Below are positions 19,546 through 29,676 of a DNA stretch of 32,000 nucleotides, piece after piece; positions within the stretch are counted from its first letter, which is position 1, and the number at the start of each line of letters is the position of its first letter. This DNA is from Patescibacteria group bacterium (GTDB taxonomy: Bacteria > Patescibacteriota > Patescibacteriia > 2-01-FULL-39-33): assembly GCA_041649575.1 (NCBI GenBank), contig JBAZMW010000002.1, positions 202,792 through 234,791 of the forward strand, read 5' to 3'. Both the position numbers and the translations under genes were made by a program. The notes below the pieces were generated by a model, which was given only the letters and a program-made list of their open reading frames with translations, was not told the DNA's origin and searched no databases.

Positions 19546-19667
19546 ACGCTATGATACTTAGACTATACTAATAGTAGGTTCCCCTACCTTTTGCCAGACG
19601 AATGTGCATAATAGCCCTCCTTTCTGCCAGTGGGCCTTCCTACCCACAGGACGTTTGTACAAATGCG

Positions 19668-25432: not shown

Positions 25433-28201
25433 TTAAAAACTGAAACCGGCCCAAAAAAACGAATCGCCAGCCTGCTTGTCTTCGAAAACTATTTTTTGAT
25501 CTTCCCGGCTGGCGGCCGGATAAACGCCCACGGCCGAAAATTTATCAGGATAAACTACTTCGCTGACTATCTTAGCCTCGGGTTCACCTGATTGTTTTTG
25601 CACCAATAAACTATAGGAATCATAACTTTTTTCCGATCTGAATGCGGCTATGATTTTATCTTTCAAGCTCAATTTTTGCTCTTGCTTCGGTTGAGCAGCA
25701 ACGCCAACTTTAAACGGCAATTTATAAACCAAGAGGAAGTCTTTGCTTTCGCCCGGACTTACAATTGCCCAATTGCCAAAAACCGTTTTGTCTTTTTCGT
25801 TATAAATCCTGGTTTTGGATGACAGATCGTCGAAGGCAAACTGTTCATTTTTCAGATCCTCGTCTGATTTCAAATAATCCTCCGGTTTTTGAAATTCCTT
25901 ATCAGCTGGCCCGGCAAAACCAGCTGCTTTGATTAATTGGCTGCCTTGAGGCACATAGACCCTCAAATAAACTCGATTGGGCGCCGTGGTGAAATTTTCA
26001 TCTATCGGGCCGAAATGATGCCGGTTAATAATCACGCGATCAATCACCGAGCCGTCCGCCATAATCGAAGCCTGGTGATAGACCTCTTGTCTGATAGCGT
26101 TGTCTGTCTTACCGCCGCCGATGTTGGCCGCCACTACCTGCAAATAATCTTTGTCGGTGCTCTTTACTCGGCCGTCCCAATTATTTTGAGCGATAAATTT
26201 CTGCTGCTCTGCCTCGTTTAAATAAATTTGGATGTCTTTGCTTTTTAAGCCGTCATTTAAAACCGTGAATAATTCCGGTAACTTTTCCGGCGGAGCCTTG
26301 ACCAGGCCGTCAATTAACTGTGGCGCCAAATCGGCCAAAATCTCTTTGGGTTGTTTTTTGTCTTTGGCTTCAAGTTCGATACTTTTCTGAATTTCTTGCT
26401 CAAAGTTGGCGGCGCTAATCGTTTTGCTGTATTTAGCCAACTGAATTTCACCCAAAACCGCCAACAGCTTTCCCAGCCAGTCGGAATTAATCGCAATCAC
26501 GCCGTCAATCGTCGGGCCGCCGCTCTTATTATAAAACCAGGTTATTTTCTTGGCTGAAGTGGGCCAATCAGGCCACCAGTTAGCATCCTGAAACTCCCAA
26601 CGGCCATTGATTAACTGTAGCGGCTGCGGCGCCAAAACCAGCTGGTTTAAGCCGGCGCGCACATCATAAGTCCCGCCTTTGGGCAGATCAATTTTCTGAA
26701 TTTCTCCCGACTTGATATCCACCAAAGCAAAACTGCCCATGAAGCCGCCGGTGGCTCTGAGTTCGTTGTCGTTTTGAAAAACCAACAAATATCTCCGCAG
26801 AGAGTTGTCGCCCAAAAAATTAATTGCAAAATCAATGATTTTTTCCGAATCTTCCAGGCTCTTGATAAAAAGCGGTAATCTTTTTTGTAATTCATAAAAC
26901 TGTTCTCTGTTTTCGGCCGGTAAGTGTGCTATATTAACTTTCTTAAAATTTTCTTGAGCCAGTTTTAGCTTGGCCAGGGCCAATTTTTCCTCTAATTTAA
27001 AATTCTTAATCCGACTGGTCAGAGAAAAATCAGAATTTTCCGTTAATTGATTTAGCCCGGAAAGCAAATGTTCTCCGGCCTTGGACATGTTTTCTCCCAA
27101 AGCGAGCAGATTTTTGCCGCTCCTTAGGGTATTATTGGGCAGGGCGCCGGCCACCACCGTCAAAAAAGAACGGATGTCCTGGAGTTGATTCTGGGCTGAA
27201 ACAAAATTCTGATTAGCCGAAGCCAGACGATCTTCGGCGGTTTTGAAATTAAGATTCTTTATTTCGTCCTGGGCCAGCTTGAGATTGGCCAGGGCTTCGT
27301 CGGCTTGTCCCAAAACTTGTCCTTTGGTTTGTTTGATACTTTGCCAATAAGAAAAGCCCTTAATCGGCAAAACCACTGCCAAAGCCACCAGCGCAAATAA
27401 AACAAAGGTTTTAAAGAAAAATTGCCGTGGCCAAAAAGTAATTTTCGAACTGGCGATTAATTTTCGTTGTCGAATTTCTGACTCGAATAATTCCGGCGCT
27501 ATGGCCTTTTTGTCAGGCCAATTGCTGGCGACTCTTTCCGCCGGTAGCTCTTTGGCCGGCTCCGCCAAAAGCGTCGTTTTTTTATTATCAAAGCTGACTA
27601 CCTCGTCTTTTTTGAAAAACCACCCTTTTATAATGGCTCTGAAATATCTAATCAAGGAATAAAGATGAGTAAAAACTTTTTTTAATCCCAAAAACAAAAA
27701 AACTAAAAGATTGATCAAGGCTGTCTCCTGCCAGACGGTCAATCCTTTACCGGTTTCTAAGGAATGTCCCCTGCCGGCTAGCGGCAGTTTTGGAGAAAAA
27801 TCAACTTTTGTGAAAAATTTGCCGGTTAATTTTAAAAACTCGTCCTTGAAATCCTTGAAAATTTTTATTATTTCGCTGTTTTCTAGTTCTAAAAGCTGGA
27901 AAACACCCAATTTAAGCAAAAAATTTCCGCCCGGCAGATCTTGATAAAAAATTTGGCCGGTCTTGGTATTGGCTGCTGGTCTGACTTTTTCAATATATCT
28001 GGCTTGCGACAAATCAAGCATATGAGGCGAAAAATAAGCATCCAAGGGGCTATTAATCGCCTTGATGGCCACATTTTTTCCCGTTCTATTGTTAACGGCA
28101 ACCTTTTGATTTTTATTTTGTTTCAAAAGCAAACCTTTGACTGACGGCTGGGAAGCTGGCAGTTTCTTTTTCTTTGCTTTGTTTTTTGTTTGTTTTGTCA
28201 C
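25433..28201 (-). CDS. DUF4012 domain-containing membrane protein
   Basis: Signature LLVFQNDNELRATGGFMGSFALVDIKSGEI plus the downstream INSDWLGKLL region typical of DUF4012. TM helices in the N-terminal third. Confidence 0.75.
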   Translation of the reverse strand: MTKQTKNKAKKKKLPASQPSVKGLLLKQNKNQKVAVNNRTGKNVAIKAINSPLDAYFSPHMLDLSQARYIEKVRPAANTKTGQIFYQDLPGGNFLLKLGVFQLLELENSEIIKIFKDFKDEFLKLTGKFFTKVDFSPKLPLAGRGHSLETGKGLTVWQETALINLLVFLFLGLKKVFTHLYSLIRYFRAIIKGWFFKKDEVVSFDNKKTTLLAEPAKELPAERVASNWPDKKAIAPELFESEIRQRKLIASSKITFWPRQFFFKTFVLFALVALAVVLPIKGFSYWQSIKQTKGQVLGQADEALANLKLAQDEIKNLNFKTAEDRLASANQNFVSAQNQLQDIRSFLTVVAGALPNNTLRSGKNLLALGENMSKAGEHLLSGLNQLTENSDFSLTSRIKNFKLEEKLALAKLKLAQENFKKVNIAHLPAENREQFYELQKRLPLFIKSLEDSEKIIDFAINFLGDNSLRRYLLVFQNDNELRATGGFMGSFALVDIKSGEIQKIDLPKGGTYDVRAGLNQLVLAPQPLQLINGRWEFQDANWWPDWPTSAKKITWFYNKSGGPTIDGVIAINSDWLGKLLAVLGEIQLAKYSKTISAANFEQEIQKSIELEAKDKKQPKEILADLAPQLIDGLVKAPPEKLPELFTVLNDGLKSKDIQIYLNEAEQQKFIAQNNWDGRVKSTDKDYLQVVAANIGGGKTDNAIRQEVYHQASIMADGSVIDRVIINRHHFGPIDENFTTAPNRVYLRVYVPQGSQLIKAAGFAGPADKEFQKPEDYLKSDEDLKNEQFAFDDLSSKTRIYNEKDKTVFGNWAIVSPGESKDFLLVYKLPFKVGVAAQPKQEQKLSLKDKIIAAFRSEKSYDSYSLLVQKQSGEPEAKIVSEVVYPDKFSAVGVYPAASREDQKIVFEDKQAGDSFFWAGFSF

Positions 28202-28328
28202 CTGTCGGGACTTATATCTTTGCCTAAAATTAAAACTAATTTTTTAAAAACTATTTGATTTATTATAACACAAAAGCCTATTTTAAAACAACCAAATAAA
28301 AATCCATAGATAAAAAAATTTTCGGCTC

Positions 28329-28358
28329 TTGACATCAACTGGACTCCTGTATTATTAT
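28329..28358 (+). promoter_or_regulatory. Sigma70-type promoter of the 28.4-kb RNA
   Basis: TTGACA (28329-28334), then overlapping -10 candidates TTATTA (17-nt spacer) and TATTAT (18-nt spacer) at 28352-28358. On the strand opposite to all flanking genes. Confidence 0.6.
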
Positions 28359-28362
28359 GATC

Positions 28363-28541
28363 ATGGTGTTGCGACATCTCTTGCTGTTTGTGGAAACCCC
28401 ACGGAACCCGCGGACAGCAAGGGCGCCGTTCCACCTCCTTTCAGCCGAAGCCACGACGGTTTTCCCGCCTCACTAACAGCGTCAGTGTGAGATCCCCTCA
28501 CACCTGAAGTGGGGAGAAACCGTCGTGGCTCAAACTTTTTT
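28363..28541 (+). ncRNA. Candidate structured ncRNA of unknown family (~175 nt)
   Basis: Promoter as above. About 62% G+C in 28381-28440 versus 25% in 28201-28260 (hand counts). 9-bp helix 28379-28387/28414-22, 7-bp hairpin 28485-28503, 14-bp closing helix 28449-28462/28517-28530 followed by U6 (28536-28541). Its G.U pairs exist only on the plus strand. Confidence 0.55.
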
Positions 28542-29676
28542 ACGCTTCCGAAAAATATAAATTATAAACTCTTTCCGCGGCTAGGCGCCAAGAATACTTT
28601 TTCAGATTATCGGTGCCATTTTCTATCAGCCCCTGCCTTAAATCTTTATCAGTCAGAACTGAATTAATTTTTTCCGCTATCTCCTTGGTATTTTCCGGAT
28701 CAAAATAAACAGCGCTGTCGCCTAAAATTTCCGGCAGACAGCTTCTGTCAGAGCTTACTACCGCCAGCCCATAATTCTGGGCTTCGAGCGGCGGTAAACC
28801 AAAACCCTCGATTAGACTGGGAAAAACATACAGACTGGCGGTCCGATACAGACAGGCCAGTTTTTGGTCGTCAAGATAATCGGTAAAAATAATCTTTTGG
28901 ACTGCCTCGCCAACCTCTTTTTTTGCCCACTCCTTTAGTCTTTGATAAAAATAATTGTTTTTGCCCACCAGAACCAGCTGCAGATCCTTATGAGCTTCCC
29001 CGATTTTTGAAAAAGCCAGGATTAAATTTTCCAAATTTTTGTGCGGATAAGCCGAACCGACGTAAAGTAAAAACTCTTGACCAATTTTCAAATCAACCAG
29101 AACTTTTTGGCAATCGGCCTCTGGCCAGACCAATGGCAAGTCTACCCCCTCATAAATCACTTCTATTTTTCGCTCTTTGGTCTTTAATAATTTAACAATG
29201 TCGTCTTTGGTGTATTGCGATACGGCAATAATTTTTTTGGCCTTTCTGGCCGCCGCCTTGATTATCAGGTGATAAAAAAACAGTTTGACTTTGTGAACCA
29301 AAGGCGGCAGGGTGGTGGCGCGGCTCTGGGGATAATGGGAAATTATCAGATCGTGAATAGTGACAATAAAATCACCGCCGTAGAAGATCGGGACGTTAAA
29401 GTGCAAAAAATGCACCAAAGCTAATTGATGTTTCCTTAGTAACTTGGGGAAAAACAGCTGCTCACCAAGACTGTACGGCCGATAATCGGCCAAAACTTTT
29501 TGAAAATTTTTGTTTTGCGGCTGATAGTCATTAAAATTATCTGCTTGCAAAAAAACAAAATACTGATTTTTAGAATCCAGCTCTTCCAGTTGTTTGATAA
29601 TTTCCTGGCTATAACGGCCGATGCCGCCGTTTTTAGGGCCAAAAAGCCGCGCGTCTATGCCAATTCTCATATACAA
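28540..29676 (-). CDS. GT-B fold glycosyltransferase (CAZy GT4-like, 'group 1')
   Basis: C-terminal EGFGLPPLEAQNYGLAVV (E-x7-E type motif), N-terminal GGIGRY. Confidence 0.85.
   Translation of the reverse strand: MYMRIGIDARLFGPKNGGIGRYSQEIIKQLEELDSKNQYFVFLQADNFNDYQPQNKNFQKVLADYRPYSLGEQLFFPKLLRKHQLALVHFLHFNVPIFYGGDFIVTIHDLIISHYPQSRATTLPPLVHKVKLFFYHLIIKAAARKAKKIIAVSQYTKDDIVKLLKTKERKIEVIYEGVDLPLVWPEADCQKVLVDLKIGQEFLLYVGSAYPHKNLENLILAFSKIGEAHKDLQLVLVGKNNYFYQRLKEWAKKEVGEAVQKIIFTDYLDDQKLACLYRTASLYVFPSLIEGFGLPPLEAQNYGLAVVSSDRSCLPEILGDSAVYFDPENTKEIAEKINSVLTDKDLRQGLIENGTDNLKKYSWRLAAERVYNLYFSEA

Follow-up and report, generated by a model that had tools for sequence, protein, structure and literature searches.

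Several bacterial small regulatory RNAs (sRNAs) carry short unpaired motifs that pair with Shine-Dalgarno (SD) sequences. In Firmicutes, the sRNAs with UCCC motifs, such as RsaE/RoxS (RF01820) and the hairpins of RNAIII, use C-rich unpaired motifs to pair with G-rich SD sequences without the help of Hfq. In Alphaproteobacteria, NfeR1/alpha-r14 (PMC10746234) and the 'cuckoo' RNA CcsR (PMC8034643) are stand-alone hairpin sRNAs whose unpaired anti-SD motifs occlude ribosome-binding sites, and the cuckoo RNAs, which are conserved across families, display an ultraconserved CCUCCUCCC in two or three hairpin loops (PMC10746234, PMC8034643). The present analysis concerns a candidate of the same functional kind in a 32,000-nucleotide (nt) stretch of Patescibacteria DNA, referred to as the window, whose two strands are called plus and minus throughout. 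The candidate unit lies on the plus strand between a glycosyltransferase (GT) gene and a gene for a DUF4012 protein, and the RNA span used for folding comprises positions 28366-28541 (176 nt). Like the alphaproteobacterial RNAs, it is a stand-alone hairpin unit with an anti-SD sequence in an unpaired region. Patescibacteria, or bacteria of the candidate phyla radiation (CPR), are uncultured organisms with tiny genomes, and no description of small regulatory RNAs in this group was found in the literature. On the sequence features set out below, the unit is somewhat more probably than otherwise a real plus-strand non-coding RNA gene, while the full proposal, in which a plus-strand RNA would act by pairing with SD sequences, is tentative and stands a little under an even chance.

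The unit opens with a sigma-70-type promoter that matches the consensus at 11 of 12 positions and is located exactly ahead of the first helix, and its -10 hexamer and spacer fall within the range that the original prediction had allowed (Table 1); the other features listed in that prediction are likewise present at the positions it gave. It is the sole promoter-like site that a consensus scan returned on either strand between 27900 and 28900. With the usual distance of about 7 nt to the -10 hexamer, transcription would start at approximately 28364-28366, and it is from about 28366 that the base composition jumps: G+C reaches 61.7% at 28381-28440, compared with 25.4% at 28270-28328 and 42.8% in the whole window, in agreement with the figures of about 62% and 25% put forward earlier. 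At the other end, the long closing helix of the 3' domain is followed by a short spacer and a run of six U residues, which overlaps the GT stop codon on the opposite strand and is the likely end of the RNA.

Between these signals, the sequence is predicted to fold far more stably than its composition would suggest, with a free energy of -77.3 kcal/mol for the plus strand of 28366-28541 versus -50.9 +/- 3.5 kcal/mol for dinucleotide shuffles (z = -7.5), a value equalled by none of 200 shuffles. The fold consists of two hairpin domains. The 5' domain alone reaches -30.3 kcal/mol with 5 G.U pairs, and its 16-bp stem bears the C-rich apical region AAACCCCACGGAAC. All helices drawn in the original prediction recur in the minimum free energy (MFE) fold, including UUUUCCC/GGG-g-AGAAA, and the pairing of 28379-28387 with 28414-28422 proves to be part of the longer 16-bp stem. 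It had further been argued that the U.G pairs are confined to the plus strand. The plus-strand fold does contain 7 G.U pairs, but as proof of strand the argument is weak, because the minus strand folds equally well through alternative pairings of equal stability: the energies for plus versus minus are -30.3 versus -26.4 kcal/mol for the 5' domain, -46.3 versus -48.9 kcal/mol for the 3' domain and -77.3 versus -79.1 kcal/mol for the whole unit. The assignment to the plus strand is thus inferred from signals rather than from thermodynamics, as the strong promoter and the U run both belong to that strand. The minus strand offers only a poor TTGGCG-19-TATAAT inside the coding end of the GT gene and no U run after either hairpin, and no acceptable promoter or terminator was found on it in the scan of 27900-28900.

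Table 1. Features of the candidate unit and of its neighbours, in window coordinates
Feature	Positions	Strand	Description
-35 hexamer TTGACA	28329..28334	+	consensus promoter scan
-10 hexamer TATTAT	28353..28358	+	18-nt spacer to TTGACA; 11/12 matches
5' domain	28366..28434	+	outer helices 28366-28368/28432-28434 and 28371-28373/28427-28429 around 16-bp stem 28378-28393/28408-28423
Anti-SD string CCACCUCCUUUC (= CCACCTCCTTTC)	28431..28442	+	bases 28432-28442 match the 3' tail of this genome's 16S rRNA exactly (CACCUCCUUUC)
3' domain	28449..28530	+	82-nt compound hairpin; 14-bp closing helix 28449-28462/28517-28530; -46.3 kcal/mol alone
Apical hairpin GUGUGAG-AUCCC-CUCACAC	28485..28503	+	UCCC-containing loop 28492-28496, unpaired probability 1.0
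CAAAC spacer and U6 run (28536-28541)	28531..28541	+	likely 3' end; non-canonical intrinsic terminator
GT4/GT1-family glycosyltransferase (GT) gene	28540..29670	-	Pfam PF00534 and PF13439; protein of 376 aa
DUF4012 protein gene	25433..28201	-	922 aa; GTG start at 28201, no SD site; relatives align from residue 2 on
DUF4012 gene promoter	28262..28291	-	TTGTTT (28291-28286), 18 nt, extended -10 TGTTATAAT (28270-28262)

The two domains are joined by the linker CCACCUCCUUUCAGCC, in which positions 28435-28446 are unpaired with a probability of 0.87-1.00 in the ensemble. The resemblance of this segment to the anti-SD tail of 16S ribosomal RNA (rRNA), noticed from the sequence alone, extends to 11 consecutive bases in common with the 3' end of the genome's own 16S rRNA (...GGATCACCTCCTTTCTA, also given as ...GGAUCACCUCCUUUCUA). 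The exact 11-mer has four copies in the 920-kb genome, namely the 16S tail, the unit and two reverse complements that are genuine SD sequences before an ATG, whereas simple arithmetic gives about 0.4 expected copies for a random 11-mer; by the same kind of arithmetic, an exact match of at least 11 nt to the 17-nt 16S tail within one 176-nt unit has a probability of about 3 x 10^-4. The likeness goes no further. Beyond the 11 bases the unit has nothing in common with the 16S tail, and it contains no counterpart of helix 45 (in this genome CCGUAGCGGAAGCUGUGG), which leaves the idea of a more extensive mimicry of the 16S tail unsupported. An origin of the unit as a 16S fragment, duplication or pseudogene was also considered and rejected on the same grounds, and a BLAST search against the own genome returned only the unit itself, which is therefore single-copy.

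These features may be combined into a simple mechanism. A self-contained transcription unit of about 230-250 nt would be transcribed on the plus strand into a non-coding RNA about 175 nt long, and its two very stable hairpin domains would hold a linker of about 12-16 nt in single-stranded form. The RNA would then act in trans as a base-pairing sRNA that does not need Hfq: base pairing between the linker and the G-rich SD region of a messenger, to which the C-rich loops ACCCCAC and AUCCC may contribute, would block binding of the 30S ribosomal subunit. Occlusion of SD sites is the idea that would fit the arrangement best. The genome encodes no Hfq, and CsrA (PF02599) was not found in it either, and the absence of both fits strong C-rich/G-rich pairing without a chaperone. 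A CsrA/RsmA-sequestering sRNA was rejected for the same absence of PF02599; three GGA triplets are present in the 5' domain and are largely paired.

With regard to targets, a crude survey of 752 long open reading frames (ORFs) put the share with a strong SD, defined by dG <= -10 kcal/mol with the 16S tail, at no more than about 15%, and the ORFs with strong SDs are GC-richer (0.49 versus 0.43). Because strong SDs are few and occur in GC-richer ORFs, any SD-masking RNA would be expected to act mainly on accessory genes, the main holders of such sites. At individual leaders, the predicted duplex with the linker is more stable than that with the 16S tail, with values of -24.9 versus -21.5 kcal/mol at the leader at C4:128555 and -22.6 versus -17.3 kcal/mol at the leader of a mini-ORF at window position 19609. 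The former belongs to a plus-strand mini-unit at C4:128510-128620, which consists of TTGACA-17-TAATAT, the SD GAAAGGAGGTGGA and a 13-codon ORF (MAWAIPELAWEGP), and whose SD region is perfectly complementary to the linker over 13 nt. The latter lies in a GC-rich island at 19.6 kb: window positions 19616-19628 and 28434-28446 are identical at 12 of 13 bases (CCTCCTTTCTGCC versus CCTCCTTTCAGCC), and the RNA of the unit would consequently be complementary to the SD region of a 13-codon mini-ORF there. A broader version of the proposal, in which the unit, with the exact 11 nt in a permanently open linker, would be a dedicated mimic of the 16S tail that competes with the 30S subunit for every strong SD and so silences or throttles accessory and foreign genes, is improbable. 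The conserved core genes of this genome mostly lack an SD at their start and the GC-rich acquired cassettes have strong ones, so that silencing at the level of translation would hit the latter.

Compared with described families, the unit appears to be new as an individual and familiar as a kind. It would be an orphan, lineage-specific candidate sRNA of the anti-SD-motif type, without membership in any family of that type. Unlike the cuckoo RNAs, it carries CCACCUCCUUUC only once, in a linker between helices, lacks CCUCCUCCC, belongs to another phylum, matches no Rfam family and has no homologs; the CCCUCCU heptamer is absent from 28366-28541, where the corresponding string is ACCUCCU and stands between helices. 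With the RsaE type it shares C-rich unpaired segments (the AUCCC apical loop and the ACCCCAC loop segment) in a genome without Hfq, although there is no similarity in sequence or covariance, and the main candidate seed of the unit is a linker rather than a loop, with 11 nt that are exactly those of the 16S tail. If the RNA is expressed and binds SD sequences, it would illustrate post-transcriptional control in Patescibacteria and might allow SD-led accessory genes to be regulated independently of the SD-poor core. The locus is a lone orphan, and its value lies in being a well-defined candidate and a further case of self-contained GC-rich mini-units inserted between conserved genes.

The genomic setting is consistent with such an insertion. 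All genes around the unit lie on the minus strand; the GT gene, with its stop codon at 28540-28542, is convergent with the unit, and the DUF4012 promoter stands back to back with that of the unit. In the closest relative (L171), the GT stop codon is separated from the DUF4012 start by 90 nt, and the DUF4012 gene has a promoter (TTGTTT-18-TGTTATAAT) and a CAGGTG start context identical to those in the window, despite a GT identity of only 65%; for the neighbour of the GT gene in this relative, PF13196 is recorded. Among 76 analysable relatives, the spacers are mostly AT-rich and 0-180 nt long. Because the spacer of the closest relative is short and retains the DUF4012 promoter, and other spacers are mostly of the size just given, the unit is best described, as far as sequence comparison goes, as an insertion specific to this lineage, some 230-250 nt long and placed between the stop codon of GT and the promoter of DUF4012. 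Furthermore, as small SD-led genes occur in this spacer in three relatives, the spacer itself is, on the same comparison, a recurrent insertion site. In L015 (3250-3750, minus) the insert is an ORF of about 73 aa that is led by an SD and runs opposite to the neighbouring genes, whereas the small SD-led genes of L144 and L111 share the orientation of GT and DUF4012. None of the relatives' inserts is detectably homologous to the unit. A parallel exists in the 'morons' of phages, which likewise run from promoter to terminator, have an atypical composition, occur one at a time between conserved genes, frequently in reverse orientation to them, and are missing from the corresponding site in relatives. 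Morons mostly carry an SD-led ORF, whereas the unit has no convincing ORF on the transcribed strand.

Several observations weigh against a regulatory RNA that pairs with SD sequences. Termination is uncertain: the original prediction was right that a closing helix and CAAAC-U6 are present, but they do not form a canonical terminator, as the stem ends at 28530 and U6 begins at 28536, leaving a gap of 5 nt where canonical intrinsic terminators have 0-2 nt, and the terminator scan did not flag this 3' end. The minus strand overall reaches -83.9 kcal/mol (z = -5.3) and folds as well as the plus strand. When one mismatch is allowed, at least one match to the motif arises in 36 of 100 shuffles of the 32-kb window, so the motif alone is not rare. 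Extended complementarity amounts to 13 nt at C2:161199 and C4:128555 and to 12 of 13 at window 19616-19628. Given the frequency of TGA+AAGGAG junctions and a total of only 33 GAAAGGAG sites in the genome, we judge that it does not clearly exceed chance expectation, and no particular messenger emerges as the target. Conservation provides little help. In 60 relatives, BLAST returned no more than short matches within coding regions that are attributable to chance, and a covariance model built from the single sequence and its MFE structure found nothing significant in 160 syntenic loci (80 anchored on DUF4012 and 80 metagenome loci anchored on GT), in 33 genomes of the family or in 150 genomes of the class. 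As no homolog was found, selection on the structure or the motif cannot be shown. The closest relative of the GT protein in a large protein collection has 65% identity; with no GT above that level in the collections searched, the lineage is effectively sampled once. Finally, the motif read on the minus strand is GGC-TGA-AAGGAGGTGG (GGC-TGA-AAGGAGGUGG), an ordinary junction of a stop codon and an SD, and in four viral contigs the identical 16-mer serves as a working SD ahead of ORFs that are 113-159 aa long.

This minus-strand reading underlies the explanation ranked as the main rival, which is unlikely: the block may be a decayed or neutral remnant of a GC-rich, SD-led accessory mini-cassette, with GAAAGGAGGUGG on the minus strand as the leftover SD of an ORF that has lost its start codon, and with hairpins and a plus-strand promoter that have no present regulatory role. 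Consistent with a remnant are, besides the stop-plus-SD junction and its viral counterparts, the identity of 13 bases with the SD of the mini-ORF unit at C4:128555, the SD-led small genes on the minus-equivalent strand of the spacer in L144 and L111, the SD-led ORF in that of L015, a 65-codon stop-free minus-strand frame that passes through the motif, and the fact that the unit is conserved nowhere searched. However, no start codon occurs 4-10 nt past the SD-like motif, the nearest being a TTG at 13 nt with a frame of about 20 codons, and the supposed SD is followed by a GC-rich hairpin of 16 bp and not by sequence that looks coding. The lack of an acceptable promoter or terminator on the minus strand also speaks against a remnant, as does the 11/12 promoter, which is oriented in the opposite direction and directly adjoins the first helix, and a z of -7.5 is unexpected for a decaying coding sequence. 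Coding on the plus strand is even harder to support. The only frame with an ATG start downstream of the unit promoter is a 38-codon ORF at 28363 (MVLRHLLLFVETPRNPRTARAPFHLLSAEATTVFPPH), which would require a leaderless start, and a small protein, or a dual-function RNA, is accordingly a very unlikely product. Such a start is geometrically possible, with the ATG 5 nt past the -10 hexamer, and the GC-rich mini-unit at C4:128510-128620 does carry a small ORF; but the ORF has no SD, crosses two very stable hairpins and stops inside the 3' domain, and it has no Pfam match and no homolog in which codon-level conservation could be seen, while other GC-rich cassettes of the genome have strong SDs rather than leaderless starts. 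No SD-led plus-strand ORF is present in the unit, and none of five ORF translations of the locus matched Pfam. Least probable of all, to the point of being hardly tenable, is a diverged member of a known family, whether signal recognition particle (SRP) RNA, 6S RNA, transfer-messenger RNA, RNase P RNA, a riboswitch or an sRNA of the cuckoo or RsaE type. The size and GC-richness of the unit resemble those of stable RNAs, and the models for 6S RNA (RF00013) and for small and large SRP RNA (RF00169, RF01854) found nothing in the whole genome, which would leave room for either. Against this, Rfam 15 at gathering thresholds returned only four tRNAs in the window, and at E <= 10 on the 451-nt slice 28200-28650 the best overlapping match was a fungal sRNA with 14.5 bits against a threshold of 37, so that the earlier failure to fit a known RNA is borne out by the search proposed at the time. 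Ffh and FtsY are missing as well, which leaves an SRP RNA without a partner; the two-hairpin architecture is unlike the 6S rod; no plus-strand gene lies downstream for a riboswitch to control; and the unit is unconserved even within the family (33 genomes).

Other explanations tie the block to the neighbouring minus-strand genes. The functional strand might be the minus strand, with the block as an intercistronic element in a transcript that reads through from the GT operon into DUF4012, serving as a processing site, as a stabiliser of the 3' end of the GT messenger or as an insulator, a reading of low probability. The stable fold of the minus strand, the hairpin that begins only 10 nt past the GT stop codon, the minus-strand orientation of all neighbouring genes and the weak promoter-like TTGGCG-19-TATAAT in the GT 3' end are compatible with it. 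Nevertheless, neither minus-strand hairpin is followed by a U run, relatives have spacers of 0-180 nt without such a block, and the strong plus-strand promoter is left unexplained. In addition, the DUF4012 gene is served by a promoter of its own that lies downstream of the block and is conserved in the closest relative. It follows that the unit is not the structured 5' untranslated region of the DUF4012 gene, an alternative that the original prediction had itself raised. Alternatively, the plus-strand RNA might act in cis, as a convergent antisense transcript that collides or pairs with read-through from the GT operon and so uncouples DUF4012, with the anti-SD string being incidental. The geometry allows this, since the unit is convergent with GT and has a U run that reaches into the GT stop codon; a non-canonical terminator would permit read-through into the antisense strand of GT, and the closest relative has another opposite-strand unit, from promoter to terminator, inside the same GT operon. 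Yet nothing in the sequence demands such a reading, the 11-nt identity with 16S rRNA and the accessibility of the linker are left unaccounted for, and most relatives are without any such unit; action in cis is therefore doubtful.

Some further observations concern the locus and its surroundings. An attC or integron site, or a repeated cassette-boundary element, was considered and rejected, as the unit is single-copy and inspection revealed no R'/R'' core-site pattern. A blastn search of a phage collection gave no match to the unit, and the covariance model found nothing significant in 13 viral contigs that share the 16-mer. On the minus strand, a 78-codon GTG frame (28198-28434) opens inside the SD-like motif, and its TGA overlaps the DUF4012 GTG (GTGA); with no SD of its own, an AT-rich low-complexity tail and no Pfam match, this frame is probably spurious. 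SRP RNA was rejected as an identity of the unit because the genome also lacks Ffh and FtsY, and the absence is wider than that: the 98%-complete genome yielded no PF00448 SRP54-type GTPase, no PF02978 Ffh M domain, no RF00169 or RF01854 and no DTAGR motif in long ORFs. In 20 relatives from the family, order and class, PF00448 gave only sub-threshold P-loop matches, whereas 14 of 14 control genomes were positive. The missing SRP pathway reflects either a lineage-wide loss or a blind spot of the search.

Opposite-strand units also occur elsewhere in this gene neighbourhood. L014 (3405-3680, minus; the same sequence is present in L090), whose DUF4012 protein has about 50% identity, carries another opposite-strand TTGACA unit in the same GT-DUF4012 spacer. 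The predicted 276-nt RNA folds at -98.6 kcal/mol (z = -8.4), exposes CCUCCUUUU in a large hairpin loop and ends with a terminator hairpin and a U run. Were the window unit a dedicated mimic of the 16S tail, the L014 unit with its exposed CCUCCUUUU would be an independent solution of the same kind. With filters switched off, the covariance model of the window unit placed its weak top matches (11.5-12.1 bits) in this spacer of L014 and L015, on units unrelated to that of the window, and these matches are treated as generic hairpin similarity. In the closest relative, an opposite-strand unit of a similar layout (L171 2692-3001, minus) is found one gene further upstream, between the second and third GT genes; it has no CCUCC motif, and it combines a perfect TTGACA-17-TATAAT directed against the GT operon with about 190 nt of GC-richer sequence, followed by a hairpin and a U run.

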